A stretch of DNA of 64,000 bases. It comes from Gemmatimonadota bacterium. GTDB taxonomy: Bacteria > Gemmatimonadota > Gemmatimonadetes > JACCXV01 > JAHWKZ01. A program made the translations under genes and the position numbers. The notes below the pieces were generated by a model that was not told the DNA's origin, ran no database searches, and was given only the letters and a program-made list of their open reading frames with translations. Positions 5,396 to 63,059 of this stretch are shown here, piece after piece. The stretch lies in the NCBI GenBank assembly GCA_039588915.1, contig JBDGYV010000004.1:2632-66631 (forward strand). The letters are read 5' to 3'. Each line of letters starts with the position of its first letter. The first letter of the stretch is position 1.

Positions 5396-7959
<2,564 letters not shown>

Positions 7960-7961
7960 GC

Positions 7962-31134: not shown

Positions 31135-31145
31135 GAGTAGCCCGC

Positions 31146-33278
31146 GTGTTCAGGCCACCAGCCCGGGTCGTCTTGATTGCCGTGTTCTTTGCTTCGGTGG
31201 GTCGAGCCGTGGCCCAGGAGCAACCCGAGCCGACCCCGGCGGACACCGTGGCCCCGGCCGATTCGGTGGCCCTGGCTGACTCGCTTAACGTCGATCGCTG
31301 GATCTACCCCGAACCGATTACTGATCCGCGCATCACCTTGCTCGGCGACACGCTAGGCACAGCCGACACGCTAAAGCCCCGCTTCACTGAGCTGGCCGAG
31401 ATCTACCCCGATAGTCTGATCGATCCCTATACGTTGGCCCGACCCGGAGCTTGGCCGGCGTGGGTCCTGAGCGGCGACCAGCTCCTCGGGCGCGGGGCGT
31501 TCAGCCTGCTCGACGTGATCGAGAGCGAGGGATTCACCCTAGGCCAAGACATGGGTGGCAGTGGGCTCAGCACGTTCGTCGGCTCGTCGTTTGGATCGCA
31601 TACGAACATCGAGGTCATGATCGATGGGGTGCCGGTCGGCGAGCCATTGTCGGTGAGCTGGGACTTGCGGCGGATAGCGATCGAGGGGATCGCGAAGGTC
31701 GCCTGGTATCCGGGGCCGCAAAGCGCTGCGTGGGGAAGCAGCGCAACCGGTGGTGTTCTGGCGATCACTACGCGCCGAAGCCTGACGCCGAGCTCCCGGT
31801 CGATGCTGGCGTTCACCGCCGGCTCGTTCAAGGTCGAGACATTCAGCGGGAACTTCGGTCGATCGATCACCCGGCGCGGCGACGTGTTCTTGGGCGCCAA
31901 CTTCGATGCCACCGACGGATTCTTGCGGATCGGTGACTTCACCCGTAACCAGTTCGTCACCAAGCTCGGTTGGCGGATCGGCTCGAAGCACCGAGTCGAG
32001 GTGTCGCGGCTGAGCGACGGGTTCTCGGGGGACGCCAGTCGCACGAACCTGTCCGGTTTTCAGGATCAAGACGGCAGCGTGGTGCACTTGTTTTACGCCG
32101 GTAGCTGGGGCGACGTGGGAACCCGCTTTCATTATGCGCGATCGCGTCAAGAGTTCCGCGAGAACTTTGACTTTCGCGACGCATTTGGATTGGTGGGCAA
32201 GGGAGAACGAGAAGGGTTCCGCGGCACGATCGACCTCCGGCGGGGTCCGTTGCTGGTGTGGGCGGCTGGTGCGCAAGAGGAGCTTGACGTGGAGTCGCTG
32301 CATCCAGCATTCGTGCGGGTCGATCAGAGCAGTGTGTTCGAGCCGGTCGAGGATGATCCCGAAGCGCCAATGGTCGAGAACCCGCGGAGACAGATCGAGT
32401 GGGGCGGAGGTGTTGGGTGGGGCGAGCCCGACGGCCGGTACGCGGCCAATGCAGCGGTGCGCCGGTTGTCGTTTGGCGACGCCGCCGAGAGTGGGATGAC
32501 TTGGCAGTTCGAAGCGCTGGGTCGGCCGCATCCCGAGCTCACCGTTCGGTTAGCCGGTGGTAGAGCCGTGCGGCCGGCCAGCTTCGCCGGTCAGGCGCTG
32601 CTCGTGGCATTGGCCGCCGAGGGTGTGGAAATCCACCCCGGTAAGGTGGCGATGCCCGAGCAGCTCGAGGCGTGGAGCGGTGTGCGCGGCGAAGTCGCGT
32701 GGACGCGCGCCGGCTGGAAAGCGACCGGACGCGTGTTCACGGCCAACGGCGATGAGGCGTTCCTGTGGCTGCCGCCGACGGCGTGGTTGTACTTTGACCG
32801 GGCCGACTTCGACAATTCGCGACTAGCGGAGATCGGTTTCAACACCTTCGATGTCGTCGACCTGTCGGTGAACGGTTTCGAGGGTGAGGTCACCGGGCCG
32901 CTGCCATGGGGGTTGCGCGGGCGGTTTGTCGCGCGGCGCTTGGATACGACTGAAGATGAGTCGGGTGACCGAGTACCGTACGTGCCTAAATCCCAATTCT
33001 TGGGGCAGGCTCGTTATGCCCGCCGACTGTTCCCGAGCGGTGATCTGTTGTTGGAGGCCCGGGTAACCGGGAGGTTCAACGGTGAGCGGACGACGCTGAC
33101 CGGTGAGACCCTGTCCTCGTACTTCGTCACCGATCTGCTTGTGCAGGGAACGATCATCAATTTCACGATCTTTCTGTCGTTAAAGAACCTGACCAACGAG
33201 GTGTTTCGGACCGAGGAAGCGTTCTTTCTCCCTGGCCGCGAGGGGTTTTTCGGGATCAACTGGCGGTTCCGCAACTGA
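31146..33278 (+). CDS. Second TonB-dependent receptor-like outer-membrane protein
   Basis: GTG start with signal peptide VFRPPARVVLIAVFFASVGRAVAQ. Plug-like region (LLDVIESEGFTLGQD..IEVMIDGVPVG) and a long beta-barrel. Confidence 0.65.
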   Translation: MFRPPARVVLIAVFFASVGRAVAQEQPEPTPADTVAPADSVALADSLNVDRWIYPEPITDPRITLLGDTLGTADTLKPRFTELAEIYPDSLIDPYTLARPGAWPAWVLSGDQLLGRGAFSLLDVIESEGFTLGQDMGGSGLSTFVGSSFGSHTNIEVMIDGVPVGEPLSVSWDLRRIAIEGIAKVAWYPGPQSAAWGSSATGGVLAITTRRSLTPSSRSMLAFTAGSFKVETFSGNFGRSITRRGDVFLGANFDATDGFLRIGDFTRNQFVTKLGWRIGSKHRVEVSRLSDGFSGDASRTNLSGFQDQDGSVVHLFYAGSWGDVGTRFHYARSRQEFRENFDFRDAFGLVGKGEREGFRGTIDLRRGPLLVWAAGAQEELDVESLHPAFVRVDQSSVFEPVEDDPEAPMVENPRRQIEWGGGVGWGEPDGRYAANAAVRRLSFGDAAESGMTWQFEALGRPHPELTVRLAGGRAVRPASFAGQALLVALAAEGVEIHPGKVAMPEQLEAWSGVRGEVAWTRAGWKATGRVFTANGDEAFLWLPPTAWLYFDRADFDNSRLAEIGFNTFDVVDLSVNGFEGEVTGPLPWGLRGRFVARRLDTTEDESGDRVPYVPKSQFLGQARYARRLFPSGDLLLEARVTGRFNGERTTLTGETLSSYFVTDLLVQGTIINFTIFLSLKNLTNEVFRTEEAFFLPGREGFFGINWRFRN

Positions 33279-41777: not shown

Positions 41778-41940
41778 CGCGGGAACTCAATCGGTCGGGG
41801 GTTCACCTTCCTTTCATTGAGCCAGACCGAGTGCGACACTGTGTAAGGGTTTCCCTTGCGCTGTCTAAATGATCAGGGTTTTCACCTCAAGCACATCAAG
41901 GTGATCGCCGTCGTCGAAGGCTAGATTGCTTGCTCCGAGG

Positions 41941-44589
41941 ATGATCGCACAGCCAGCCACTGACGCTGATCTCCCGTCGGGGACGGTCACGTTCCTTTTC
42001 ACCGACATCGAGGGCAGCACTCGTTTGTGGGAGAAGGACGCCGCCCACATGAAGGCGAACCTCGAGCGCCACGACCAGATCATCCTCGACACCGTTGATG
42101 CCCACGGTGGCCACGTTTTCAATACGGTGGGTGACGGATTTTGGACGGTGTTTGAGCGGCCGCCACAAGCAGTGGAAGCGGCGCTGACCATTCACCGTGA
42201 TCTCGATCGGGAAGCCGAACGAGCCACGAATCCGCTGCGCGTTCGGGTAGCGATACACACCGGAGAGGCAGACCAACGAGAGGGAGTTTACTCCGGGGCT
42301 ACGGTGAGCCGAGTCGCCCGTCTTACCCCCGTGGCCCATGGTGGCCAGACGATCCTGTCCCGGACCGCGTGGGATCTGGTGCGCAACGCGCTGCCCGACG
42401 AAATGACGCTGCGCGACCTCGGCTACCACCGCCTCCCCGATCTCGAGTCTCCGGAACAGATCTACCAGCTTGAGCATCCCGGGCTCCGGTCGGAGTTCCC
42501 GCCGTTGAGATCGCTGGACACGATGCCCCACAACCTGCCCCTCCAACTGACAAGCTTCGTGGGTCGGGAAGCGGAGATCGAGGAAGTTCGGAAACTGTTG
42601 GCAGCCCATCGCGTCGTCACGCTTTCAGGAATCGGAGGTCAAGGCAAGACTCGCCTCGCGCTGCAATTGGCGGCTCAAGTGTTGAAGATGTTCCCGGACG
42701 GTGTCTGGTTCGTCGAACTCGCCAGACTTACCGATCCAGCGCGGGTTCCACAAGCTGTCGCGAACGCTCTCGGCGTACGTGAGGTGCCGGGACGTGACGT
42801 GGCCGACATGCTGATGCAGCACTTGTGTTCACAAACGGCTCTGATCGTGCTAGACAACTGCGAACATTTGATCGACGCGAGCGCGGTGTGGGTCGAGACG
42901 GCGTTGCAGACAGCGCCACGGTTGAAAGTGCTGGCAACAAGTCGGGAGATGCTGGGAATCCCCGGGGAAGTGGTATTCGTGGTTCCGTCGTTAGCTGCGC
43001 CGGCCATCGGAATCGATCCGAAGGACACGTCTCCATCGGACCTGACTGCCTATGAAGCGGTCCAGTTGTTTGTCGAACGCGCTGCACTTGTAAAACCAGG
43101 TTTCGCTATTGATGGGAGCGCTCAATCGGTGGGTCAGATCTGTGCGCGGCTGGATGGAATCCCCCATGCGATCGAGCTGGCCGCGGCGCGTGTTGCGGTT
43201 CTGTCGCCGGATCAGATCGCGGCGCGTCTCGACGACTGTTTTCAGCTTCTGGGAGTCGGCAGTCGTACGGCGTCGCCTCGTCATCAGACGCTTCGGGCGG
43301 TGATCGATTGGAGTCATGACTTACTAGAAGAGCAGGAACAGAGGTTACTGCGACGGCTGGCGGTCTTCGTTGGCGGTTGGACGCTGGAGGCCGCTGAAGA
43401 GATCTGGGGCGAGTCGGGGACCCTCGACCTTCTATCGCGGCTCGTCGACAAGTCTCTCGTCGTCGCCGAGCCGTCGGACGCGACAGGTATGCGCTATCGG
43501 CTACTGGAAACGACTCGACGCTACGCGCGCGAAAAGCTCGCTGCAGCGGGCGAGGGTGAAGCGATCGAGAGACGACACCGGGACTGGACGCTCGCGCTCG
43601 TCGAGTCGGTCGATCTTGGATTCCCGGGTTCGGACGTCGCGCTGAGACTGGAGTCACTGGAGACCGAGAACGACAACGTGCGCGCGGCGTTGGAGTGGAG
43701 CCTGGCGCGAAACGAATCTGAGCCGGCGCTTTGGATCGTTGCCTCGATGAAGCACTTCTGGAAGTCGAACGGTTTGTTGACTGAGGGGATCGAGTGGTGC
43801 AAGAGGGCGCTTGCCGCCGGCTCGGAGTTGAGCATAGCGAGGAGCCAGGCGCTGAGCGTTCTCAGCGCGCTTTCGTTTTTTCACGGCGATGTCGACCGCG
43901 CCCGTTCGGCGGCCGAGGAAGCGCTGACGATCGCGCGAGAGGTAGACGACACGCGGAGCCTGATGCTCGCGCTTTCAGCAGTCGCGAGGAACGCCTCGCT
44001 CAGTGAGAGCGACTACGAGATTGGAAGCGTCGCCGCCGACGAGGGATTGCGGTTGGCTCGGGAGCTCGGAAATCGGGATTCGGAACTGGTCCTCCTCGTG
44101 AATCAGGGGGACGCCGATCGATACTGGGGACACCTGAAACGAGCGGAAGAGATGTACGAAGAGGCGCGAGCTCTGTGTCGCGCTTCGGAGAATCGGTATC
44201 GAGAAGTGGAGCTGCTGTTCAACTTGGGTCAGACAGCGCTCGCCATGGGGAACGCGGATGAAGCCGACCGACGCTATCGACAATTGGAGCGGCTCACTAC
44301 CGAGTTCCACCATCTAGCTGGCCGTTTGCAGGCGCTCATCGGCATGGCGGAAGTCTATGCGACCAGGGGTGCGCACGATCGGGCGGCGCGACTGCTGGGC
44401 GCCAGCGAGGCGGGACTAGAAACCCAGGGCCGAACGCTCGATCCCCCCGATCACCTGCTCTACGATCGCTCCGTTGCTGCGGCGCGAGAGACCCTTGGCG
44501 AACGAGCCTTCGCGGCCGCCTGGGCAGAGGGGGGCGAATTGACGCTCGACGAGGCGGTAGCCGAGGCGTTTGGGGACGCGCCTACCTAG
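41941..44589 (+). CDS. Multidomain signalling protein: class III adenylate/guanylate cyclase domain + NB-ARC/AAA-type ATPase + TPR repeats
   Basis: N-terminal VTFLFTDIEGSTRLWE..FNTVGDGFW cyclase core. P-loop GIGGQGKTRLA and the hhhhD box LIVLDNCEH. C-terminal TPR-like repeats. TTG 41926 is an alternative start. Confidence 0.7.
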   Translation: MIAQPATDADLPSGTVTFLFTDIEGSTRLWEKDAAHMKANLERHDQIILDTVDAHGGHVFNTVGDGFWTVFERPPQAVEAALTIHRDLDREAERATNPLRVRVAIHTGEADQREGVYSGATVSRVARLTPVAHGGQTILSRTAWDLVRNALPDEMTLRDLGYHRLPDLESPEQIYQLEHPGLRSEFPPLRSLDTMPHNLPLQLTSFVGREAEIEEVRKLLAAHRVVTLSGIGGQGKTRLALQLAAQVLKMFPDGVWFVELARLTDPARVPQAVANALGVREVPGRDVADMLMQHLCSQTALIVLDNCEHLIDASAVWVETALQTAPRLKVLATSREMLGIPGEVVFVVPSLAAPAIGIDPKDTSPSDLTAYEAVQLFVERAALVKPGFAIDGSAQSVGQICARLDGIPHAIELAAARVAVLSPDQIAARLDDCFQLLGVGSRTASPRHQTLRAVIDWSHDLLEEQEQRLLRRLAVFVGGWTLEAAEEIWGESGTLDLLSRLVDKSLVVAEPSDATGMRYRLLETTRRYAREKLAAAGEGEAIERRHRDWTLALVESVDLGFPGSDVALRLESLETENDNVRAALEWSLARNESEPALWIVASMKHFWKSNGLLTEGIEWCKRALAAGSELSIARSQALSVLSALSFFHGDVDRARSAAEEALTIAREVDDTRSLMLALSAVARNASLSESDYEIGSVAADEGLRLARELGNRDSELVLLVNQGDADRYWGHLKRAEEMYEEARALCRASENRYREVELLFNLGQTALAMGNADEADRRYRQLERLTTEFHHLAGRLQALIGMAEVYATRGAHDRAARLLGASEAGLETQGRTLDPPDHLLYDRSVAAARETLGERAFAAAWAEGGELTLDEAVAEAFGDAPT

Positions 44590-45088: not shown

Positions 45089-45886
45089 ATGGGCACTGCC
45101 ATTTCGCGCATTCTCTACAAGGTGCACGGCGTACTGACGGCAAACGAACTCACGCGAGGTCCCCAGCGTCGCCTGGCACGGAAAGCAAAAGCGGCCTTCA
45201 ATGTGCCGGACGCGTACGGTGAGATCGTAAAGATCTGCCGGTTGCTACCTCCGGCAGCGATCCTCGACGTTGGGAGTCATCGTGGGGATACGATTGTCCG
45301 GTACCTCGATGAGTTCAGATCGATCCCTATTTATGGTTTCGAGCCCACCCCGGAATCGTTTCAATACCTCCAGCAACGGTTTGGTGGGTCCACCCAGGTG
45401 ACCCTTCACAGCGTAGCCCTGTCGAACGAGAGTGGAGTGCACGAGTTCTTCTGCAACGTTGATGAGCAGACAAACTCTCTCTTGGACAATGACGCTGAGA
45501 ACCAGGAGTCCTTCGGGGAGGATACTACCCACGTGCAACGGATTGAAGTTCGCACGACTACACTCGATGAGTGGGCAGCCAAAGAGTTTCCGGACGGACG
45601 CTTAGTGCTCAAGGTAGACGTCCAAGGCGCGGAGGGGCTCCTCATCGAAGGGGGTCGCGAGACTATCCGCAACCGCGTAATCGCGTTTTACAGCGAGGTA
45701 ATGCTCTCTCCTATGTACAGCGGACAGACGGACTTTGGCGCGGTTCACCAACGCCTGACGATGGAGCTTGGTTTCGTCCTACGGGACATTTATCCATGTC
45801 TGCACAGCGACAGCGGCAAAGCGGTCCAGGCGGATGCCCTGTGGGTCAAACCGGAGGTTCTAGAGGCCTTGAGCGGCCCAGCGTAG
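45089..45886 (+). CDS. FkbM-family SAM-dependent methyltransferase
   Basis: DVGSHRGDT SAM-binding region and the FkbM-type C-terminal half. Confidence 0.7.
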   Translation: MGTAISRILYKVHGVLTANELTRGPQRRLARKAKAAFNVPDAYGEIVKICRLLPPAAILDVGSHRGDTIVRYLDEFRSIPIYGFEPTPESFQYLQQRFGGSTQVTLHSVALSNESGVHEFFCNVDEQTNSLLDNDAENQESFGEDTTHVQRIEVRTTTLDEWAAKEFPDGRLVLKVDVQGAEGLLIEGGRETIRNRVIAFYSEVMLSPMYSGQTDFGAVHQRLTMELGFVLRDIYPCLHSDSGKAVQADALWVKPEVLEALSGPA

Positions 45887-46014
45887 GGAGTAGCCTACAC
45901 CGAAACACCTAATCCCCGACTTACCCCCTTCAAACGCCACAACGTATCGCAGCGGATCGTTCCCCAAGTAGGAGTTCGACTCCAGAACACCACAGGGAAG
46001 ATGCCGCGAAACGA

Positions 46015-46224
46015 TTGGAAACACGATTCTTGCCCGAAATCGCCGAGGACGCTGGGATGATCGTTGGGGTGGGGTCTGTCACTGTGCTGGCCGGAACGTT
46101 CACTCAGACGATCCGCGTTCGGGAGAGCAACCCCATCGATGGCGACAAGGACTACAAGGTCTTTGCCGCTGGCACCGGCGTCATCATCGATGGGCCGCTG
46201 GAGCTCATAGAGTCGGGACCCTGA
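46015..46224 (+). CDS. Small hypothetical ORF (56-69 aa) in long intergenic region
   Basis: TTG start at 46015, or ATG at 46054 (MIVGVGSVTVLAG...). No recognisable domain. Its stop overlaps a hairpin. Confidence 0.25.
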   Translation: METRFLPEIAEDAGMIVGVGSVTVLAGTFTQTIRVRESNPIDGDKDYKVFAAGTGVIIDGPLELIESGP

Positions 46225-46361
46225 TGCTCACTCAGGGTACCTAGGGCGCCAAACGGATGGGTTCCGGTGCCCTGGCACCGGGCCCATCTAGGCGCCCACC
46301 CTGCCAAAAACCCCGTCGGCGAGTTGCCCGCTGACCCTGTCAGACCTCCGCTTGAGCGGGC
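46219..46361 (+). repeat. Cluster of nested inverted repeats/palindromes in the 5' region of the TonB-dependent receptor gene
   Basis: ccctga-N7-tcaggg at 46219-46237. An 18-bp palindrome ccggtgcc-ct-ggcaccgg at 46264-46281, flanked by ctagggcgcc and ctaggcgccc. gcccgct-N22-agcgggc at 46326-46361, with an inner ctgac-ccT-gtcag. Confidence 0.5.
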
Positions 46362-46573
46362 TTCTCGCCACATTTTCATTCAGTCAGACGTTCCTCACGT
46401 ACAAGCCGTGAGTCATGGCCGAGGTGCACAAGCCGAGGTCGTTTCGGGAGGTGCGAAATCCCCGAATTGGCCACTTCTGCAGCTACCGATAAGGGACTCC
46501 GGATAGACAGGTTGGGCGCGGTCCGGTAAACTGAACTCATGCAGCGCCTGCAGTATTCCGGAGAGCGGATACT

Positions 46574-48886
46574 ATGATCAGGCTAGCGCTCATCGCCGTA
46601 ATGTCCCTCGGACCCCCTCCGGGTGACGGTTCCGTTCACGGAACGGTCCAGTCCGATCGTTACGAAACGGTCGCCGGGGTGCGGATCGAGATCCCGGCTG
46701 AGGGCGTAGTGGCGTGGTCGGACTCGACCGGGGCCTACCAGATCGAGGGCCTCGAGCCGGGCGAGCACAAGATCCGGTTCTCGCAGTTCGGGTATCACCC
46801 GCTCGAGCTTCAGGTCACGGTGCCGCATGATGGCTCGCTGAGCCTGGACGTTCGGTTGCGAACCCAGTTTATCGTTTTTCCCGAGATCTCGGCTCTCGCA
46901 TACGCGTCGCTCGATCCCGGCGAGGTGTTCGAGGCCAACGGATTGCCGGAGATCGGTTCGAGGGTGTTGGCGGGCGAGGTGCTTTGGTCCGACCCGTTGG
47001 CCCGCCAACCGGACGTCTTCGAGATCCTGTCCATCATTCCCGGCATCGACATGGCGGAGGAGTCGCCGACGCAGCTTCACGTGCGTGGCGGCTCGGCTGA
47101 CCAAAACCTCGTCCTGTTGGACGGCGCACCGGTTTACAATGCCTACCATACGAGCGGGATCATGTCCGCGATCAGCCCCGACGCGGTGTCGGAGGTGGCG
47201 ATTCACACCGGTGTGTTCCCGGCCCGGTACGGCGGCCGGCTGTCGAGCGTGATCGACGTATCAACACCAGAACCCGGCGAGTCCGGGCTGCGGGTCCGAG
47301 GCGGTGCGGGGCTGGCCGACCTGAGGATGACGGTCGACGCGCCGATGCCCGGTGCCGCCGGGGGAGTACTGATCGGCGGTCGTCGAACGAGGTACGACCT
47401 GTTCCGACGCGGCCCGTTCCTCGACAAGAACCGGACCAGCGGGTTTGACGATTTGCTGGGCAAGGTCTCGATCGACCTACCGGGAGGCCGGTTCGACGTC
47501 GTCTCGCTCACTTCGGACAACTGGCTCTTTTCGAACGTCATTGGAGATGAGGCCAGCGTCGCGACCGAGGAACAGCGGGCGCTGAGGAACAGCGTGCTGT
47601 GGTCGGCATCAACGAACGCCGTTGCGTGGAGTCGATCGTCCGACGCCACGTCCGACATCCGGTTTCAGATGTGGCGCGCCACAACAAACTCGGACGTCCA
47701 CTGGGGGGCGAGTTCCGAGCGCTACCGTGCCGTCAATGCGCTCAAGCACTGGGGTGCGTCGGGTGACGTGTCTTGGGTGCGACCCGAGACCGTGGGACGA
47801 GCTGGTTTCACGGTAGAAGCCCTGTCCTCCAAGTACGTGGCCGACCCCTTGACAAGCGACACAGTGCTGAGCCTAGCTGACGCAGACCCCGTTCTGGATC
47901 TGCGATCGAGCCAGAAGATCGTTTCCACGTACTTCGAGCACCGCTGGATCGCGCGCGATCACTGGATCGTCAATAACGGGTTGCGAGCTGTGTTTGTCGA
48001 TGGTCGCAGCGTCGCGCTTGAGCCGCGTGTCTCGGTTCACTACCGACCCGATGAAAGGTTGACGCTCTCCGGTGGGTACGCACGAGTTCATCAGTACGTG
48101 CAATCGCTCCGCAACGAGGAGTCGCTTTTAAACGCTGCTTTTGGCGCCGAGCCGTTGGTCACCGCGGACGCCCGAGAAGTGCCGGTCGGCCGGTCGGACC
48201 AGCTGACTGCGGCGTTGGAAGCACGGTTGTCGGAGCGTCTTCTCTTGACAGTCGACGGACACCTTCGGTGGCTCGATGACCTCGTTCTTGTGGCTCCCAC
48301 TACCGCCCAGCCGTTCGCGATCACCGGGTTTGAGCGTGGAAAGGGACGGGCGATAGGCACCGGGGCGGCTCTGTTCTATCGGGGGGATCGAGTCGATGCC
48401 GAGGCGATCGTCGAATGGAGTACCATTCGCAGACAGTATGGAAACGTCACCTATCATCCTGGATTCGAGCGTAGGCGATCGGTGATCACGGCTGCATCCT
48501 ACCGGCTTACGCCTCAGACCAAGGTCAGGACCGCTTTCCAGGCGGTTGCTGGCCGACCCACCAGTTCGGTCCAGGAGGGGTTTGACTGGGAATCATTTGA
48601 TCGGCTGAGCGGCGAGGTGGAGTTCAGCGGAACACCACTGCGGCTCTCCGACACGGTCAACGATGAGCGACTGCCGGCTTACGTCCGGTGGGACATCGGG
48701 ATCCGCAAGGAATGGAATCCCTCGCTGCTCGGTCTCTCTGGCTCGGTCATGACCTATCTGGACGTAACCAACGTGCTGGGACATGAGAACGTGGTTGGCT
48801 ACGGGGTCAATCCGTCGGGATTCGAGCGCCGGGACCTGCGTCTCCTCCCGGCATCGACCGCTTTCGGTCTCGAGTGGAGCTTCTGA
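46574..48886 (+). CDS. TonB-dependent receptor with carboxypeptidase-regulatory-like N-domain
   Basis: CarbopepD_reg (GTVQSDRYETVAGVRIEI..YQIEGLEPGEHKIRF), a plug domain, and a 22-strand-type barrel ending in the EWSF C-terminal aromatic signature. Confidence 0.75.
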   Translation: MIRLALIAVMSLGPPPGDGSVHGTVQSDRYETVAGVRIEIPAEGVVAWSDSTGAYQIEGLEPGEHKIRFSQFGYHPLELQVTVPHDGSLSLDVRLRTQFIVFPEISALAYASLDPGEVFEANGLPEIGSRVLAGEVLWSDPLARQPDVFEILSIIPGIDMAEESPTQLHVRGGSADQNLVLLDGAPVYNAYHTSGIMSAISPDAVSEVAIHTGVFPARYGGRLSSVIDVSTPEPGESGLRVRGGAGLADLRMTVDAPMPGAAGGVLIGGRRTRYDLFRRGPFLDKNRTSGFDDLLGKVSIDLPGGRFDVVSLTSDNWLFSNVIGDEASVATEEQRALRNSVLWSASTNAVAWSRSSDATSDIRFQMWRATTNSDVHWGASSERYRAVNALKHWGASGDVSWVRPETVGRAGFTVEALSSKYVADPLTSDTVLSLADADPVLDLRSSQKIVSTYFEHRWIARDHWIVNNGLRAVFVDGRSVALEPRVSVHYRPDERLTLSGGYARVHQYVQSLRNEESLLNAAFGAEPLVTADAREVPVGRSDQLTAALEARLSERLLLTVDGHLRWLDDLVLVAPTTAQPFAITGFERGKGRAIGTGAALFYRGDRVDAEAIVEWSTIRRQYGNVTYHPGFERRRSVITAASYRLTPQTKVRTAFQAVAGRPTSSVQEGFDWESFDRLSGEVEFSGTPLRLSDTVNDERLPAYVRWDIGIRKEWNPSLLGLSGSVMTYLDVTNVLGHENVVGYGVNPSGFERRDLRLLPASTAFGLEWSF

Positions 48887-48938
48887 TCCTCGGCCGAGGC
48901 CTTAGCCGCCGCAAAGTCTTCCCCCTCACGCCACATAT

Positions 48939-48950
48939 CTGACGCGTCAG
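48939..48950. promoter_or_regulatory. Perfect 12-bp palindrome CTGACGCGTCAG 34 nt upstream of the ECF sigma gene
   Basis: Seen directly in the sequence. It is followed by gcgttccatctgtgaacc, so it may be an operator or promoter element. Confidence 0.25.
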
Positions 48951-48983
48951 GCGTTCCATCTGTGAACCGGGTCTCCTGGGAGA

Positions 48984-49523
48984 GTGAGTGAGCGCCGGGA
49001 CGTGAATCGGAATGAACCATTCGAGGCCGCTTTTGGCGACGTCTTTGAGGCGCGGTTCCAGTCGTTGTTCCGCTATGTGAATCGTCTTTGCGGGGATTCA
49101 GCGGCGGCCGCGGACATCGCTCAGGAGTCCTTTGTGAGGTTGTACCAGCGAGGTGAACTACCCGATGACCCAAGAGCATGGCTGGTGACGGTGTCCAATA
49201 ACTTGTTCCGCGATGCGCACCGACGCACAGGTAGGCGGCAGGAGCTACTGGAAGCCAAAGCAGATCGCCTCTACGATGACGGGTCGGCTTCTGATCCGGC
49301 GGAGCAGTTGGAGGCTCGTGAGCGGAGACAGCGGGTCCGACAGGCTCTCGCGAAGTTGCCGTTGCGCGATCAGCAGGCGTTGCTGCTTCGTCACGAAGGC
49401 TACACCTATCGCGAGATCGCCCGGGCTCTCGACTACGGGGAGGCCGGGGTCGGAAAACTGATCAGTCGCGCCACACGCGCTTTTCAGCGCGCGTATGAGG
49501 ACTTGGTAGATGCATCTGCATGA
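48984..49523 (+). CDS. ECF-type RNA polymerase sigma factor (sigma-70 region 2 + region 4)
   Basis: Region 2 (FQSLFRYVNRLCGD..AADIAQESFVRLY) and a region-4 HTH (YREIARALDYGEAGVGKLISRA). Confidence 0.85.
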   Translation: MSERRDVNRNEPFEAAFGDVFEARFQSLFRYVNRLCGDSAAAADIAQESFVRLYQRGELPDDPRAWLVTVSNNLFRDAHRRTGRRQELLEAKADRLYDDGSASDPAEQLEARERRQRVRQALAKLPLRDQQALLLRHEGYTYREIARALDYGEAGVGKLISRATRAFQRAYEDLVDASA

Positions 49524-50238
49524 CGCCGAACTACAGGGGCTGCTCGACGAGGAGCCCAGCGTTAACGAGAACGAGAGCGTTCGCGCGCACGTCGCGGGTT
49601 GTGAGCAGTGCTCGGCGAGGATGGAGGACATGAAGCTTGCGTTTCGCGAGACCGGGCAACTATTGACAGTGCTCGACGAGTCCCCGCCGGCGATATCTGC
49701 CGATCAGCTGATCGAGATGGCGCAACGCCGTCACATTCCTGCCCGGAGAGCGCCTCGGGGAGTCGCATGGGCAGCCTCGGTGGCGGGTTTGGTCGTCGCG
49801 ACGATCGTTGCCGCCGCCATTCCGGGATCGCCGGTCCGTGCGATCGTGGAGAATCTGCTCCAAGATCTAGGACCTGAATCGCCCCAACCCACGGCTCCGG
49901 TGGAACCGTGGGAAGCTGGCGTCGCAATAACACCCGACGGAGCGATCGAGATCGTGTTCGATGCCGCTCAGTCGAGTGGTTCGATCGAGGTCCAGTTGGT
50001 CGAGATCGATGTCGCCCGAATCGAGGTTCGCGGTGACTCGGTTGGTTTCGCGGTAGGGGATCGTTCGATCCGAGTCGAGAACCAAGACGCGACCGCCAGT
50101 TATCGGATCACGCTCCCAGAGAACCTGTCGCAAACCGTAATCCGGGTCGGCACGCGCACCGTCTTCGCCAAGCAGGGCTCCCGGGTCTTGCAGAACGAGT
50201 TCGACCAGGACGGAGAGCTCTACCGGCTCGTGTTTTAG
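49510..50238 (+). CDS. Putative anti-sigma factor (zinc-finger type)
   Basis: Overlaps the sigma gene. N-terminal H-x3-C-x2-C (HVAGCEQC) as in ZAS/RsrA-like anti-sigma domains. A TM segment (AASVAGLVVATIVAAAI) and a periplasmic C-terminal domain follow. Confidence 0.5.
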   Translation: MHLHDAELQGLLDEEPSVNENESVRAHVAGCEQCSARMEDMKLAFRETGQLLTVLDESPPAISADQLIEMAQRRHIPARRAPRGVAWAASVAGLVVATIVAAAIPGSPVRAIVENLLQDLGPESPQPTAPVEPWEAGVAITPDGAIEIVFDAAQSSGSIEVQLVEIDVARIEVRGDSVGFAVGDRSIRVENQDATASYRITLPENLSQTVIRVGTRTVFAKQGSRVLQNEFDQDGELYRLVF

Positions 50239-50347
50239 TCGGTTTCACAGCTCCGCAGGCTTCACGCCCAACGCCACAAACTTTCGGCTTCACACGCTCC
50301 GTCTGTAGCAGTCGACATTACTTCTTGGAGGGGAGGCGCGACGGAGC

Positions 50348-51121
50348 ATGGTCCCGGTGGTGTACGACCCGGTCATCGTATCCGTCGTCGTCCCCCTCCT
50401 CGACGAGGCCGAAAACTTGCCACGGCTCCACGCCGAGATCGTCGACGCGATGACCGACCTGGATGTCGGTTGGGAGGTGGTTTACGTGGACGATGGCTCC
50501 CGCGACAACGGTCCCCGCATCCTGGCCCAACTCGCGGATCTCGATTCACGTGTACAGGTCGTCACTTTCGACCGCAACTACGGCCAATCGACGGCGATGA
50601 TCGCCGGTGTTGAGGCCGCGTTCGGCGACTGGATCGCGACGCTCGACGGGGACGGCCAGAGCGATCCCAAAGACCTCCCGCGAATGTGGGCGGTCATCTC
50701 GCGGCGGAAATGCGATGGTGTCACTGGCGTCCGCGTGGATCGTGCAGATGACTGGGTGAAGCGCTTCGCCTCTCGGATCGCTAACGATGTCCGAAACCGG
50801 GTACTCGGCAACGAGATCACCGACCTCGGTTGCTCGACTCGGATCTTTCCGAAGGCCGCGATCCTGGGCGCCGCCCGGTTCGAGGGGATGCACCGTTTTC
50901 TCCCGATGCTCGTTCGGGCTGGCGGGTACACGATCGACGAGCTGCCAGTCAATCACCGGCCCCGCATCGCCGGCCAGTCCAAGTACGGGATCAACAACCG
51001 ATTGTGGCGTGGGATAGCGGATCTGCTCATGGTCCGCAGACTGCTCCGGCGCAAGATCCGGTATCAAACGAAAGAAGCCGCGACGGTCGTGCAAAGCACG
51101 CGTCTCGGGGCCTGGCTGTAA
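50348..51121 (+). CDS. GT2-family polyprenyl-phosphate glycosyltransferase (DPM1/ArnC/GtrB-like)
   Basis: VSVVVPLLDEAENL and the DDGSRD (DXD) motif. C-terminal amphipathic/TM region typical of Und-P sugar transferases. Confidence 0.8.
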   Translation: MVPVVYDPVIVSVVVPLLDEAENLPRLHAEIVDAMTDLDVGWEVVYVDDGSRDNGPRILAQLADLDSRVQVVTFDRNYGQSTAMIAGVEAAFGDWIATLDGDGQSDPKDLPRMWAVISRRKCDGVTGVRVDRADDWVKRFASRIANDVRNRVLGNEITDLGCSTRIFPKAAILGAARFEGMHRFLPMLVRAGGYTIDELPVNHRPRIAGQSKYGINNRLWRGIADLLMVRRLLRRKIRYQTKEAATVVQSTRLGAWL

Positions 51122-51299
51122 TCGCTGCCCAGACGTGGCTCATGATCGGCTGGCCTGCTCGTTCTCGTCCTGGTGCTTGTGGATTACGTCTACCGCACCC
51201 GATTTCCGGTTAGAATGTTAAGATGCAAGAGCTAAGTGATGGTCGAGTGACCACTGAAGCCAAGCCAAACTCCTCAGGGTCAAATCCGGGAGATCTCGA

Positions 51300-52316
51300 A
51301 TGAACATTTTGGTTACCGGTGGGGCGGGCTTTGTCGGCTCGCACTTGTGTGAGGCGTTGGTCGAGCGTGGTGACCGAGTCGTGGCGCTGGACAATCTTGA
51401 TCCGTCCTACCCGAGAGAGCGGAAGCTGCAGAACGTGATTCAGCTTCGCGACCACGTTCGCTTCGATCTCGTTGAGAGAGATCTCAACGTTCCTGAGTCG
51501 TTGGTCGAGGTCCTTGCTGGCGGGTCGTTCGACGCCGTCGTCCATTTGGCAGCCAAGGCGGGAATTCGGGCATCGATGCGTAATCCGAGCGCCTACATCG
51601 AGACAAATCTCGGGGGAACGGCGAACCTCCTCGAAGCGATGACCAGAACTGGTTGTCGCCGGCTTGTTTTCGGTTCGTCTTCGTCGGTTTACGGCAACAA
51701 TCCGGGTCGGCCTTCGCGTGAGGACGACCGAGTGAAGCCAGTCTCGGTGTACGCAATGACGAAGAAGAGTGGGGAGGAGCTGTGTCGCGTCTACAATACG
51801 ACGCAAGACTTCAGCGTGCTTTGTCTCCGCTTCTTCACTGTCTACGGTCCACGTCAACGACCGGAGATGGCGATCCACAAGTTCACCCGCCTACTACTCA
51901 ACAACGAGCCGATACCGCTGTTCGGCGACGGTTCGATGGAGCGCGACTACACGTACGTCGACGACATCACCAGTGGCGTCGTGTCCGCGATCGACTTTGT
52001 TACCGCGCATGGAGGATTCGAGGTCGTGAATCTTGGATCAGGGATGCCGCCGGTGACGTTGAACGAGCTCGTCGCAAGGCTGGGTTGGCTGTCCAAGATC
52101 GAGCCGAGGGTCGAGTACCACTCGGCCCCTGGGGGTGACGTCGATAGCACTTGTGCTGATATCAACAAAGCACTCGGACTGCTCAGCTACCAACCGCAGG
52201 TCGACTTTTCAGAAGGGCTTGGGCGATTCCTCGAGTGGTATCGAGTTCTCGCCGCTGCCGGCACGGCCTCTTACGGCCATCGCGCAGAGCCCGACCCAGC
52301 GACAAAGGCCTCATGA
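51300..52316 (+). CDS. NAD-dependent nucleotide-sugar epimerase/dehydratase (SDR extended family)
   Basis: GGAGFVGSHL Rossmann motif and the YAMTK catalytic YxxxK. Confidence 0.85.
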   Translation: MNILVTGGAGFVGSHLCEALVERGDRVVALDNLDPSYPRERKLQNVIQLRDHVRFDLVERDLNVPESLVEVLAGGSFDAVVHLAAKAGIRASMRNPSAYIETNLGGTANLLEAMTRTGCRRLVFGSSSSVYGNNPGRPSREDDRVKPVSVYAMTKKSGEELCRVYNTTQDFSVLCLRFFTVYGPRQRPEMAIHKFTRLLLNNEPIPLFGDGSMERDYTYVDDITSGVVSAIDFVTAHGGFEVVNLGSGMPPVTLNELVARLGWLSKIEPRVEYHSAPGGDVDSTCADINKALGLLSYQPQVDFSEGLGRFLEWYRVLAAAGTASYGHRAEPDPATKAS

Positions 52317-52357
52317 CTTGCCATCTGCCCCGGCACTGTAACTAGCCTCAGACTAGA

Positions 52358-53164
52358 TTGCGGTCCGTACTGGCGAGTCGAATCGCAAGGGCCTTCCCGG
52401 TGGTGGAGCAAGTGAAGTCTACAATCTGTGTTCTTGTTCTCGTGCTGGCGCTATCGGTGCTGGCATCTTGCAGGAGCGTCCGGCTAGCGGATCTCGAGAC
52501 AACTCGCGCGGTCCCGCCCGGGGCTTGTGTTGTAGTGGGGTTTTTGGGCGGGATGGATGCTTGGAACGATGCCAGCAAGGGTGCGCGGGGACTGGCGCTC
52601 GCGTTGCGAGACCGTGATGAAGGCGTGTACGCCGAGACGTTCGAGAACCGACGCATCCCTCTGGCGCTGGCCTTTGTCGATCGGGCCCTGGACGCGAACC
52701 ACGATGGTGAGATCGACGCGGACGAGGTGGGGCGCGTGCGTCTCGTTGTCTACGGCCAGAGTCTCGGCGGTTGGGCAGCCGTTGAGTTTGCCCGGATGCT
52801 CGCCGCTCGACTGATTCCGATCGAGTTCCTGCTTCAGATCGACAGTGTGGGATTCTATGATGATGAAGTGCCGGCCAACGTTCGTCGGGCGGCCAATTTC
52901 TATCAGGACGACGGATGGGTAATCGCCGGTGAGAACCCTATCCGAGCGTTGGATCCGAGTCAGACCCAGGTCATCGGGAACTGGAAGTTCGACTATGACC
53001 GGCCACCAGGGTCGGCGATCGACGTCGGGGATTTGCCGTGGTGGAAAAAGGCGTTTCGTGTGGCGCATGCTCGGATGGACCGCGACCCACGGGTGTGGGC
53101 GACCGCAAGCGGCCTCATTCGGCACGCTTGCGAGCTTGGTGCAGGCGGCCGAACGAACAGCTAA
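52358..53164 (+). CDS. Hypothetical secreted/lipoprotein with alpha/beta-hydrolase-like nucleophile elbow
   Basis: Signal/lipobox VLASC and GQSLGG (GxSxG). Confidence 0.4.
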   Translation: MRSVLASRIARAFPVVEQVKSTICVLVLVLALSVLASCRSVRLADLETTRAVPPGACVVVGFLGGMDAWNDASKGARGLALALRDRDEGVYAETFENRRIPLALAFVDRALDANHDGEIDADEVGRVRLVVYGQSLGGWAAVEFARMLAARLIPIEFLLQIDSVGFYDDEVPANVRRAANFYQDDGWVIAGENPIRALDPSQTQVIGNWKFDYDRPPGSAIDVGDLPWWKKAFRVAHARMDRDPRVWATASGLIRHACELGAGGRTNS

Positions 53165-59190: not shown

Positions 59191-60009
59191 TCAGTCCTTG
59201 CGTGCTCGGCGACGCTGCCGGGTGATTAGCGCTCGTTGCATCGACCGCCACAAGCTACGGCGTTCCTCGCCGGGCTGATCACTGATTTCTAGTGCGCCTT
59301 CGAGCAGTCGTGCCTGGTCAGAGCGAGTGAGGCCAGGAATGCTGATCCACACTTGGGCCAGGTTCACTCCGCGCTGACGCATCGTCGGCCGCCGTCCAGT
59401 AACAGACCGGTAGAGGTCTAGCAGGACGATGCCGTGGATCCCGTCCTCGGGCAGTTGACCCTGGGCTGCTAGGATGTGTGGCGCTTTGAGATCATCGTGA
59501 AAGAGACCCCGTGCATGAAGTGTACCGATCAGCCGTCCGAGTAACCGGACCGCACGTCGGCGTTCCGAACCACTGGCGTCGCGGACGATCAAGTCAGCGG
59601 ACTTCACGTCGTGGACCTCTCGCGTAGCGAGAAAACTCTCCCGCCTCAGAAAGCCGATTTGCCGCACGCCGAACAAAACCGGTGGGGAAACACCGATTCC
59701 TAGATCCTCGACCGCGTGGATCGCGAGCCATTCGCCCCGGGCTCTGGTCCGCCCGAGAGCGTCCTTCAATCGCCGTCGAAGGTCGCCAAACTGGTAGCGT
59801 TTGAGATACACCCGCTCCGGTTGGCCATCGACTTCGAAGGGGACGCGGACGACGATCTGGTTGGGGTGGGTACGAACAACTTCAACTTCCTGGTGGAGCC
59901 GGTCCAGCTCGAGCCATGGGAGCGACTCCACGACCAGGTCCTTGTAGGCAGGCAGGCATTCGAATGTGGCGCCATTGCGTGTGAACCGCACCGTCGTGTC
60001 TGAGACCAC
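59191..60009 (-). CDS. Lipopolysaccharide/Kdo kinase family protein (KdkA/InaA/WaaP-like)
   Basis: Protein-kinase-like fold with catalytic HARGLFHDDLKAPHIL and a DLY Mg-binding motif. Size and motifs fit the Kdo kinase family. Confidence 0.65.
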   Translation of the reverse strand: MVSDTTVRFTRNGATFECLPAYKDLVVESLPWLELDRLHQEVEVVRTHPNQIVVRVPFEVDGQPERVYLKRYQFGDLRRRLKDALGRTRARGEWLAIHAVEDLGIGVSPPVLFGVRQIGFLRRESFLATREVHDVKSADLIVRDASGSERRRAVRLLGRLIGTLHARGLFHDDLKAPHILAAQGQLPEDGIHGIVLLDLYRSVTGRRPTMRQRGVNLAQVWISIPGLTRSDQARLLEGALEISDQPGEERRSLWRSMQRALITRQRRRARKD

Positions 60010-60797: not shown

Positions 60798-63059
60798 CTA
60801 CGAGATCGGCTTCTCGGGAAGCTCGACCGTAAACGTCCACAGTCCAGAGTTGTAGTCGGTCGCATAGAGCGTGTCGCCGACCGGCGACCACTCGTCCCCG
60901 AACATCGGGAACACACCCCACACGCTGGGAGCGAACGGTAGTTTGGCGTCCTCAGGCCCGGCCGACGGTAAAAAGTAGGCGATCTCACGACCCTGAGCGT
61001 AGAGGTCGCCACGCAACTCGCCACTGACGTCGACAACCCGGATTCCACCCTGGTAATAGCCGATGTACAAGACGTCATCGTTGACCCAGAAGTTGTGCGC
61101 ACCCGCTTCGGGAACCTCGTACTTGGCGACGTACTTCGGCCTGGTCGGGTCGCTAACGTCTACGACGTGCACCGGTCCACGTGGATCGTTCCCCGACCCC
61201 GGGATGCTAGGGGTCGTGCCCGCGAGGCTGAAGTCCTCATCGCCCACGAACACGTAGTTGCGATGCCGGATCGCCGAGTGGGTCGGACCACCCGGATAAA
61301 AGATTCGGCTCACCTGCGTCGGTGCCTCAGGGGTTCCGCCACGACCGCCACCGCCGACGTCGAGGATCACAAGCCCGTCGTTCATGTACGACACGTACGC
61401 CATACCATCCTGCACCCAAATGTCGTGCAATGAGCGACCGACGACGGGGAGGCCCCACCGACCGACTTCGCGCGGACGGGTAGGATCCGAGAGATCGATG
61501 ATGTGCAGATCGTTGGTGCCGTCGTTGACCGCGTAGACGAGATGCCCGATCCAGAACACGTTGTGCACTCCGGCCGTCAGGGTCTCGGTGTACTCGCTCA
61601 CCAACTCCGGCTGAGCTGGATCCTCGAGTGAGAACACCAGGATCCCGTTGCGTCGGTTGGCTGCCCCTTCACGCGTGGCGACCAGCCACTGGCCGTCTTC
61701 AGACACCTTGACGTCGTTTATGACGCGCGCATCAAACTCCTGCTCGTTCGTCAACACGGGGTTGGCTGGGTCCGAGACGTCGAATGTGAGCAGACGATTG
61801 GCCTGGTGCGTGCCCACGTACACGTACGAGTTTTGTGGCCACAGATCGGAGGTGTACGTTTCAACGTTCTTGCCGTGTCCGTTCATGTGGATACGGCCGG
61901 ATATCCCCCTGGCAATGGCTTCGATTGACGCGGTCGCGACCCGGTCGCCCAATACTGCCACCACCGTGTACCGGCCTGGATGTTCGGCGACGAACGAACC
62001 GTCCGGGTACACCTGAGCGCCGGCCTGGGCTACTGACCAAACCGGGCGGGCGTGATCTTCGTCCATCGCGAGTTGGACGACGTCGCCGGTACGGATCGCG
62101 CCGCTTGGCACGTCTTCGATCGACAACGGATCCCCGGACTCGGCCACCACCGAGATCGTGTACTCGGTCCTCGTGTCGTCAGCTTTGACAGTGATGGTGG
62201 CTTGACCCGGTGATTGCGCGACGAGCGTGTGAGCGTCGACTCCGATCACATCAGAAGCGCTGGATGTGATTTCGACATCGGGATCCAGCACCCAGCGATG
62301 GATCGAGTTCAGCGCGTCGATCTCGAGCGGCACCCGACTGCCGGTCACAAGTCGCGACGGCACGTTGGTGTAGACGCTGATCGACTCGATCTTCGGACTC
62401 GAGATCGCGACTGCGGCCGTGCCAATGGCATTGTTGACCACTGCAACGACCACTCTGTCTCCCGCGTTCACGCCGACGAAGTCTCCCGATTGGTTGATCG
62501 TCCCGCCCAACGAGAACCATTCGACATCGCTATCCGCGATCTCAACACCCGCCTCGTCGTAGGCGCGAGCTACAAACCGCTGTGTTTGTTCCGAGTCGAG
62601 GGTGATGTTGCTTGGTACGACCTCGACCCGCGAGATGCCGGGTGCGGCACGGAACATGTCAAAGCTCGGCTCGAGTTGTGTGTCTTGACCGACCGGTACA
62701 AGCGCAATCGGTATCACGAAGCGGTTATCTTCGCCGAGGCTGAACCAGAGGCCAACGAACGCATCGCCATCGCGCGTACCAACGAAACGGCCGGGACCGA
62801 ACGGCGTATCGAACTCCATCTGCGCCCGATCGTCAGTCACCTGGCTGTCCGTGACCTGCACGAACGTTCCTGGACTTTCGGGCGTCACGATCTTGTCGGC
62901 GTCGATCTTGAACGGCATCGGCGGTGCGTTTATCCCCTGACCGACCAGCTGATAAGGGGTGTAGCCTGCAGGGATCGTCGGTGCATCTTGGGCCATGGCT
63001 TGACTCGTGATTGTCGACCCGGCAGTTACCGCTATCAGGGCGAGTGTATAACGGAGCAT
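60798..63059 (-). CDS. Secreted LVIVD-repeat beta-propeller protein with N-terminal Big_2-like Ig domains
   Basis: Signal peptide. Ig-like domains. Repeated LVIVD-type strands (GLVILDVGG, GIRVVDVSG, LHIIDLSDPTRP, VHVVDVSDPTRP, LLTFDVSDPANP). Confidence 0.6.
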   Translation of the reverse strand: MLRYTLALIAVTAGSTITSQAMAQDAPTIPAGYTPYQLVGQGINAPPMPFKIDADKIVTPESPGTFVQVTDSQVTDDRAQMEFDTPFGPGRFVGTRDGDAFVGLWFSLGEDNRFVIPIALVPVGQDTQLEPSFDMFRAAPGISRVEVVPSNITLDSEQTQRFVARAYDEAGVEIADSDVEWFSLGGTINQSGDFVGVNAGDRVVVAVVNNAIGTAAVAISSPKIESISVYTNVPSRLVTGSRVPLEIDALNSIHRWVLDPDVEITSSASDVIGVDAHTLVAQSPGQATITVKADDTRTEYTISVVAESGDPLSIEDVPSGAIRTGDVVQLAMDEDHARPVWSVAQAGAQVYPDGSFVAEHPGRYTVVAVLGDRVATASIEAIARGISGRIHMNGHGKNVETYTSDLWPQNSYVYVGTHQANRLLTFDVSDPANPVLTNEQEFDARVINDVKVSEDGQWLVATREGAANRRNGILVFSLEDPAQPELVSEYTETLTAGVHNVFWIGHLVYAVNDGTNDLHIIDLSDPTRPREVGRWGLPVVGRSLHDIWVQDGMAYVSYMNDGLVILDVGGGGRGGTPEAPTQVSRIFYPGGPTHSAIRHRNYVFVGDEDFSLAGTTPSIPGSGNDPRGPVHVVDVSDPTRPKYVAKYEVPEAGAHNFWVNDDVLYIGYYQGGIRVVDVSGELRGDLYAQGREIAYFLPSAGPEDAKLPFAPSVWGVFPMFGDEWSPVGDTLYATDYNSGLWTFTVELPEKPIS

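Follow-up and report, generated by a model that had tools for sequence, protein, structure and literature searches.

A predicted autoregulated extracytoplasmic function sigma factor module linked to a CarboxypepD_reg receptor and a truncated sugar-lipid operon in Gemmatimonadota

The locus reported here, in which genes for a TonB-dependent receptor, an extracytoplasmic function (ECF) sigma factor, its presumed anti-sigma factor, a glycosyltransferase and a nucleotide-sugar epimerase follow one another within a 64,000-nucleotide stretch of a Gemmatimonadota genome, has its closest described counterparts in the FecI/FecR/FecA systems of cell-surface signalling (such as Fox and Pup of Pseudomonas), in class I sigma/anti-sigma pairs such as RsiW-SigW and RslA-SigL and, for the enzymes, in the lipid A galacturonosylation of Rhizobium and Aquifex and the ArnC/ArnT (PmrF/PmrK) aminoarabinose system. 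ECF promoters usually have an AC-containing -35 element and a CGT-containing -10 element, 16-17 nt apart. ECF control of envelope-charge modification is familiar, as exemplified by SigX and the dlt operon in Bacillus, and the Arn system is controlled by two-component systems, not by an ECF sigma factor. The rhizobial pathway of lipid A galacturonosylation includes a UDP-glucuronate (UDP-GlcA) 4-epimerase, LpsL. To our knowledge, almost no experimental data are available on gene regulation in Gemmatimonadota. In the rhizobial system, RgtE charges bactoprenyl phosphate with galacturonate (GalA), which RgtD and RgtF, both GT-C enzymes, then pass on to lipid A (PMC7663294). In cell-surface signalling, a signalling domain in the receptor is needed for signal transfer, and this domain is absent from receptors that do not signal (PMC11637429).

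The stretch analysed, hereafter the window, comprises positions 2,632 to 66,631 of the forward strand of contig JBDGYV010000004.1 (GenBank assembly GCA_039588915.1), and coordinates without a locus name are positions within it. An initial annotation, made from the sequence alone, had called five genes in this region; all five calls are correct, with open reading frames (ORFs) at the positions given below, and the domain architecture proposed for them was borne out by Pfam domain searches.

46574-48886, + strand: TonB-dependent receptor, 770 aa, with an N-terminal CarboxypepD_reg domain (Pfam CarboxypepD_reg, Plug and TonB barrel)
48984-49523, + strand: ECF sigma factor with regions 2 and 4 only (Pfam Sigma70_r2 and Sigma70_r4_2; NCBIfam)
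49510-50238, + strand: zinc-finger (HxxxCxxC) class I anti-sigma factor, 242 aa; its gene overlaps the sigma gene by 14 nt
50348-51121, + strand: ArnC/RgtE-like GT2 polyprenyl-phosphate glycosyltransferase, 257 aa (Pfam GT2, PF00535, 3.6e-29)
51300-52316, + strand: NAD-dependent epimerase of the extended short-chain dehydrogenase/reductase (SDR) type, most likely a UDP-glucuronate 4-epimerase

Related loci were found among Gemmatimonadota metagenome-assembled genomes by a genome scan with the sigma protein. The sigma factors of these loci are 96% (L001), 86% (L002 and L003), 83% (L004) and 42-53% (L005-L010) identical to that of the window. L119, L120 and L121 were retrieved through anti-sigma homologues, and a metagenome scan with an alignment of the sigma factor added 80 further loci of 368 relatives. 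The family seems to be confined to Gemmatimonadota. The main text of the ECF classification paper mentions no named ECF group for it, and the family may already have an ECF group number. Comparison with the relatives gave ratios of nonsynonymous to synonymous substitution (dN/dS) of ~0.1-0.2 across all genes of the locus, with values of 0.10-0.16 for the receptor, 0.07-0.14 for the sigma factor and 0.09-0.17 for GT2; a dN/dS value for a 268-aa downstream gene against L002 and L003 was disregarded as the product of a misalignment.

The regulatory interpretation of the locus is built on a bipartite motif, GCCACA-N16-CG(T/C)TCC, that occurs exactly four times in the 64-kb window where 0.02 occurrences are expected. 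Each copy is an exact match, reads on the + strand and is intergenic; the four lie within 4.4 kb.

45936-45963, + strand: P1, GCCACA-N16-CGTTCC, the distal of two copies before the receptor gene
46367-46394, + strand: P2, the proximal copy before the receptor gene
48930-48957, + strand: P3, upstream of the sigma gene, with an autoregulatory reading
50273-50300, + strand: P4, GCCACA-N16-CGCTCC, upstream of the GT2 operon

P3 ends 27 nt before the sigma start codon and P4 ends 47 nt before the GT2 start codon. The motif is present at all four positions in L002, L003, L119, L120 and L121 and at three in L001. P1 is kept in place in L001, L002, L003, L119, L120 and L121 and is absent from L035, where the upstream flank is different; P2 is kept across all near-clade loci, and P4 in L002, L003, L035, L118, L119, L120 and L121. 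In L001, P4 has been cleanly deleted and the GT2 gene starts 45 nt after the anti-sigma gene, as expected if both units are co-regulated. When 17 promoter regions from six genomes were aligned, the only invariant columns were those of GCCACA and CG-TCC, and across nine related Gemmatimonadota loci the hexamers are unchanged while spacers and flanks drift. The association also holds over the larger family, evaluated with 86 loci that have enough upstream sequence, the distant ones at 41-56% sigma identity. Of these 86, 45 by a strict and 59 by a relaxed criterion have a sequence conforming to G[TC]CAC[AGT]-N16-CGTTC[TC] in the 230 nt before the sigma gene, and most of the remaining loci have one-base variants of the motif, as judged by eye. 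Strict matches number 80 in the 1.1 Mb of family loci against 9.6 expected, and the copies inside one genome share that genome's variant.

Autoregulated ECF promoters are recognized by just such a pattern, an asymmetric bipartite element of fixed spacing that stays with the sigma gene when the flanks are unrelated. We infer that GCCACA and CG(T/C)TCC are the -35 and -10 elements, respectively, of the sigma factor's own, lineage-specific promoter, and as a regulon prediction this appears well supported. ECF control of the GT2/epimerase operon, already suggested in the initial annotation, is supported at the sequence level both by the conserved sigma-associated motif upstream of GT2 and by L001, where GT2 joins the sigma operon. 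The promoter type that the annotation proposed to look for, GGAAC...CGTC, is absent upstream of the sigma and GT2 genes, and GAAC-N15-18-CGT occurs in the window 56 times, against 59.8 expected. An AAC-N18-CGTC sequence that overlaps the motif inside P4 was rejected as a canonical ECF promoter, as it is lost in L003 while GCCACA and CGCTCC are kept. The annotation had further singled out a perfect 12-bp palindrome before the sigma gene. This palindrome, CTGACGCGTCAG, is indeed present, as a single copy at 48939-48950 inside the 16-nt spacer of P3, but is neither special nor conserved as a palindrome. There are 32 perfect 12-bp palindromes in the window, against ~21 in shuffled sequences, so that the one within P3 is unremarkable on its own, and in relatives at 83-86% identity the site reads CTGAAGAGTCAA or CTGAAGGGTCAA, with changes in the centre and in one arm. 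For these reasons a role as an operator was rejected.

On balance, we consider it probable that the locus encodes a self-activating ECF sigma/anti-sigma pair that drives its own synthesis, the receptor gene and a sugar-lipid operon through the shared motif. An envelope cue would inactivate the membrane-bound anti-sigma factor, with regulated proteolysis, known from other class I anti-sigma factors, as the most likely means, and the freed sigma factor would then direct RNA polymerase to P1-P4. Initiation at P3 would transcribe the sigma factor's own operon and so provide positive feedback, P1 and P2 would drive the CarboxypepD_reg receptor gene, and P4 an envelope-glycosylation operon that in relatives has the order GT2 - LAB_N - GT-C - epimerase - lipoprotein hydrolase - membrane protein. 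In the chemistry predicted for this operon, the epimerase would convert UDP-GlcA to UDP-GalA, the ArnC/RgtE-like GT2 would load the sugar onto undecaprenyl phosphate, and on the periplasmic side the ArnT-like GT-C would pass it to lipid A, to the core of the lipopolysaccharide (LPS) or to another envelope acceptor.

The sigma factor scores 79.6 bits with TIGR02937 (cut-off 42.9) and 44.5 bits with the NCBIfam FecI equivalog model (cut-off 260), and so is not FecI-like. Its partner had been described as a short zinc-finger anti-sigma factor, which is right as to the zinc finger and wrong as to the length; the 242 aa form a three-part protein, in which a single membrane helix connects a helical, cytoplasmic N-terminal domain to an all-beta domain of ~110 aa in the periplasm. 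The zf-HC2 score of the window protein, 19 bits, is below the cut-off of 22.2; the motif H27-x3-C31-x2-C34 is present, H2, H27, C31 and C34 are invariant in 31 homologues, and zf-HC2 was found in all 31 anti-sigma factors tested and a FecR-like domain in none. An AlphaFold model based on 19 homologues has a mean predicted local distance difference test (pLDDT) score of 74, and scores >90 in the 12-strand beta domain, residues 131-242. A PGSPVR motif located just outside the membrane helix is invariant in the 19-sequence alignment. The N-terminal domain weakly resembles RslA, RsiW, RseA and ChrR in structure, and the beta domain is weakly similar to 'putative adhesin' folds of the DUF4097/DUF2807 type; no similarity was found between the periplasmic domain and the PupR/FecR C-terminal domain. 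The module works like a classical autoregulated ECF/class I anti-sigma stress module, and there is no evidence for a new mechanism.

The receptor of the window matches Plug with 38.6 bits (cut-off 23.9) and the TonB barrel marginally, with 28.4 bits (cut-off 27). No signalling domain was matched by Pfam, which reports CarboxypepD_reg, Plug and barrel only, confirming that the receptor lacks a signalling domain of the FecA type, as the initial annotation had noted. A PDB sequence search with the receptor returned no match, and no clear consensus TonB box was recognized on reading the linker, residues 99-146. CarboxypepD_reg is present in each of the 30 family receptors tested. Of 90 loci, 58 have a CarboxypepD_reg receptor gene next to the sigma/anti-sigma genes; where both flanks reach 3 kb or more, the figure is 22 of 23. 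Two gene orders occur, receptor-sigma-anti-sigma and sigma-anti-sigma-receptor.

A receptor that is so nearly constant a partner, whose gene has putative sigma-type promoters as in cell-surface signalling and which is accompanied by an anti-sigma factor with a well-folded periplasmic domain and an invariant PGSPVR motif, could be a sensor as well as a target. The corresponding alternative, a non-canonical form of cell-surface signalling in which the receptor senses a ligand and signals to the anti-sigma factor through its CarboxypepD_reg N-domain, is the best of the rival explanations and is, in our view, unlikely. The signalling domain that is required for signal transfer (PMC11637429) is found in 0 of the 30 receptors, none of the 31 anti-sigma factors has a FecR domain, the periplasmic domain is unlike the PupR/FecR C-terminal domain, the sigma factor falls far below the FecI cut-off, and the adjacency and co-regulation of the receptor gene are equally well explained if the receptor is the main target gene. 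The resemblance to cell-surface signalling noted in the initial annotation is limited to the presence of a receptor partner; on every testable feature that defines a FecIRA system, taken from PMC11637429, the locus differs, and the suggested response to an extracellular ligand finds no support in the receptors and anti-sigma factors of the family. The receptor is either the main stress-induced target of the sigma factor or signals through another domain. Somewhat less likely still is a generalization of the second possibility, namely that the triad of sigma factor, anti-sigma factor and CarboxypepD_reg receptor, widespread in Gemmatimonadota, constitutes an STN-free form of TonB-dependent trans-envelope signalling. 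Were this so, the CarboxypepD_reg extension of the receptor would engage the small beta domain of the zinc-finger anti-sigma factor, and the output would be outer-membrane remodelling, with a GalA-type glycolipid operon here and serpins or lipoproteins in other lineages.

To return to the self-activating module and its predicted output, the glycosylation operon is intact in L001-3, L120 and L121, where the order is GT2 - LAB_N - ArnT/PMT-like GT-C - epimerase and the gene boundaries overlap. LAB_N of the relatives (PF07578) has ~98 aa and GT-C has 553-569 aa. A literature search on LAB_N found nothing relevant. In the window these two genes are reduced to a scar, and two further genes follow the epimerase.

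51122-51299, + strand: deletion scar with the start of LAB_N and C-terminal fragments of GT-C, ~1.9 kb of the relatives' sequence being missing (blastn and tblastn against L001, junction alignments)
52358-53164, + strand: lipoprotein-like protein that contains GQSLG, a motif of the serine-hydrolase type; synteny in L001-L003 and L117-L121
53177-53686, + strand: small multi-pass membrane protein, syntenic in L001 and L003, probably the last operon gene

Both downstream genes come after the epimerase in all near relatives, and neither the motif nor a terminator was found between the epimerase gene and the gene of the GQSLG lipoprotein-like protein, which also has a weak EF-hand-like match. The two genes probably complete the operon and may be envelope-modifying. 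In L121, which has an intact operon, the receptor is split into 264 + 512 aa and the anti-sigma factor has 206 aa (4153-6382, 7001-7621), reflecting gene decay or an assembly error.

The window-type deletion architecture is present on 6 contigs, and there are two further deletion alleles, one in L035 and L118 and the other in L119, the latter with a 4-nt overlap between GT2 and the epimerase. The junctions of these are located at 8136-8213 in L035, 3069-3143 in L118 and 8608-8611 in L119. Among close relatives, at least three losses of LAB_N and GT-C can be told apart by their junctions. That the deletion is an assembly artefact was rejected, given the 6 contigs and the two alleles with other junctions. 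Intact and deleted alleles co-occur in JGI sample 3300041080, and the deletions could be recent. No other GT-C was found in the 64-kb window by tblastn. GT2 and the epimerase have dN/dS values of ~0.07-0.17, also between deletion carriers; as both are under purifying selection they are apparently still functional and so probably feed a transferase encoded elsewhere. The window locus would then make a lipid-linked sugar that is not transferred by any product of genes in cis. The loss of LAB_N and GT-C, which leaves the pathway truncated in the window, had been overlooked in the initial annotation.

The best NCBIfam and PDB match of GT2 is ArnC (PDB E = 2e-32, residues 10-219). GT2 has no C-terminal membrane helices, being 257 aa long against 322 aa for ArnC, and its last 38 residues are charged and amphipathic. 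For the GT-C of the relatives, the best NCBIfam match is ArnT, with 77.5 against a cut-off of 567, and a PDB sequence search gave no match. After its top PDB match, discussed below, the epimerase matches the B. cereus UDP-GlcA 4-epimerase 6zl6 (E = 1e-57) and MoeE5 6kv9. In the alignment with 6zl6, counted by hand, S127-S129, Y151, K155, T180 and R187 are opposite T126, S127, S128, Y149, K153, T178 and Arg185 of the B. cereus enzyme, in which Arg185 contacts and holds the GalA carboxylate (PMC12338863). The window protein retains the Ser/Thr-Tyr-Lys catalytic set and the Arg that contacts the carboxylate. It is most likely a UDP-glucuronate 4-epimerase that makes UDP-galacturonate.

Several observations weigh against the self-activating module with a galacturonate-type output. 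The promoter assignment is purely comparative, and the -35 sequence GCCACA is unlike the common GGAAC. There is no motif directly before the epimerase gene, which is assigned to the operon because the genes are coupled in relatives. The linkage of GT2 and the epimerase to the sigma factor is near-clade only, being absent from L115, L116 and all distant loci, and without GT-C the local pathway has no known end product. GT2 scores 130 bits with the ArnC model NF007986 (cut-off 529), the best NCBIfam model for the epimerase is GalE, with 176 against a cut-off of 262, and the epimerase has as its top PDB match 5u4q, which carries a dTDP-glucose 4,6-dehydratase annotation; as the ArnC and GalE models are below their cut-offs, the identity of the sugar is read from overall similarity and a few residues. 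The first two of these points, together with the conservation of a STAND-type regulator gene just upstream, could also be taken to mean that the motif serves another regulator as an operator, or some other alternative sigma factor as a promoter, and that the module is merely co-regulated. We consider this very improbable. The motif tracks the sigma gene over ~60 loci with unrelated flanking genes and persists in distant loci from which the STAND gene is missing; its two halves are always 16 nt apart, it always points the same way relative to the gene that follows, and its distances to start codons are those of a promoter. Nor is it symmetric, as the operator of a dimeric regulator typically is. 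Least probable of all is that GT2 and the epimerase are mere neighbours expressed independently of the ECF sigma factor, constitutively or for general polysaccharide synthesis, as their near-clade association and their persistence under purifying selection after GT-C loss, which points to a role outside the operon, might suggest, since the P4 hexamers are invariant in at least 7 genomes against a diverging intergenic background, GT2 has become part of the sigma operon in the locus that lacks P4, and a search for sigma-70-like promoters gave none before either GT2 or the epimerase.

The DNA between P1 and the receptor gene has two further features.

46395-46573, + strand: conserved 5' leader of the receptor gene, with 92% mean column identity in five genomes
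46015-46224, + strand: 69-codon ORF, left over from the C-terminal end of a lipoprotein gene associated with the module and probably a pseudogene fragment

The leader is far more conserved than nearby synonymous sites, with synonymous divergence (dS) in coding sequence reaching ~0.8 in the same genomes. A sigma-70-like sequence, TAGACA-17-TAAACT, at 46504-46532 is located in an invariant block of the leader and may provide basal receptor expression. A structured RNA or riboswitch within the ~180-nt leader was rejected (fold z = -0.6, with 2 of 56 predicted pairs covarying), and an Rfam search of 45800-52400, including the leader, returned one sub-threshold chance match only. A leader peptide was also rejected, as the small ORF, by reading, has 25 codons in the window and 13 in L002 and L003 and so is not conserved. 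The 69-codon ORF, which follows P1 directly and keeps about the last 65 codons of the longer gene, lies in ~240 bp that are missing from L001 and L003, and matches the last ~63 residues of lipoproteins of 228-284 aa that are encoded beside the module in L040 (1483-2169), L045 (1672-2109), L046 (2214-3068, - strand), L050 (~7300-8016) and L061 (2156-2713). Neither the ORF nor the lipoprotein family has a Pfam match. As the tail of a longer lipoprotein gene, the ORF was rejected as a genuine small gene, and P1 may once have been the promoter of that gene.

Upstream of the module, a gene at 41926-44589 encodes the STAND NTPase (NB-ARC/AAA and TPR, with an N-terminal adenylate/guanylate cyclase domain) that is conserved at this position in the near clade. 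Between it and P1, a gene for an FkbM-family methyltransferase (45089-45886) is present in the window, L002, L003, L119 and L121, and is not present in L001 and L120. A second transport cluster, at 25235-33278, encodes a Peripla_BP_2 protein, an ATP-binding cassette (ABC) ATPase fusion and two TonB-dependent receptors, one at 27848-30097 with CarboxypepD_reg and the other at 31029-33278; the motif is absent from this cluster, and no sigma/anti-sigma pair adjoins it. Downstream of the module there are genes for a homologue of Kdo/WaaP-family LPS kinases (59191-60009, - strand) and for a large LVIVD-repeat protein (60798-63059, - strand). The rest of the window contains housekeeping genes, rpoN, hprK, ptsI, metK, ahcY and carAB. 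The serpin genes of a distant subclade (ORFs 4455-5993 in L008 and 2724-3983 in L009, both - strand) are faced by a divergent copy of the motif, at 5796-5823 (- strand) and 4051-4078 (- strand), respectively, which suggests that the output of the regulon differs by lineage.

A promoter consensus, G[TC]CACA-N16-CGTTC[TC], and a concrete predicted regulon are now available for an ECF sigma family, and both are testable. In one clade, the sigma factor is tied to an ArnC/ArnT-like, probably galacturonate, envelope modification operon, and the recurrent loss of the transferase while the donor-making genes are kept suggests strain-level variation in surface chemistry. This repeated loss, and an obligate receptor partner that has no signalling domain, are mildly surprising. 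Among the papers searched, none pairs an ECF system with a CarboxypepD_reg receptor, and none is on ECF control of an ArnC/ArnT-like operon or on an ECF sigma factor linked to lipid A modification.

Compared with the FecI/FecR/FecA systems, the locus has the same combination of an outer-membrane TonB-dependent receptor, a single-pass anti-sigma factor and an ECF sigma factor, with the sigma operon clustered with the receptor gene and the receptor gene an apparent target of the sigma factor, here by its motif. It differs in that the N-domain of the receptor is CarboxypepD_reg and not a signalling domain, in that the anti-sigma factor is a zinc-finger protein with a small beta domain whereas FecR has a periplasmic beta-solenoid and an STN-like C-terminus, and in that the sigma factor is not FecI-like and its predicted regulon includes a glycolipid operon rather than iron uptake genes. 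With the class I pairs RsiW-SigW and RslA-SigL it shares overlapping sigma and anti-sigma genes, an N-terminal HxxxCxxC domain, a single membrane helix and, at the sequence level, an autoregulatory promoter with a CGT-containing -10 element; unlike them, it has a family-specific periplasmic domain with the PGSPVR motif, a -35 element of GCCACA or GTCACA and a TonB-dependent receptor as an obligate neighbour. For the enzymes, the ArnC/ArnT system provides the closest matches, ArnC for GT2 and ArnT for the GT-C of the relatives; there are no ArnA, ArnB or ArnD genes, however, and the adjacent SDR protein is of the epimerase type and not a decarboxylase/formyltransferase. The lipid A galacturonosylation of Rhizobium and Aquifex resembles the intact loci in combining an SDR protein like UDP-GlcA 4-epimerases with a GT2 and an ArnT/PMT-like GT-C. 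This likeness is one of pathway logic, an analogy in which the Rgt proteins were compared by description and in which the sugar and its acceptor would correspond by inference. The locus departs from the Rgt system in having a GT2 that lacks C-terminal helices and is followed, in relatives, by a LAB_N membrane protein, in its predicted control by an ECF sigma factor and, in the window, in the deletion of GT-C.

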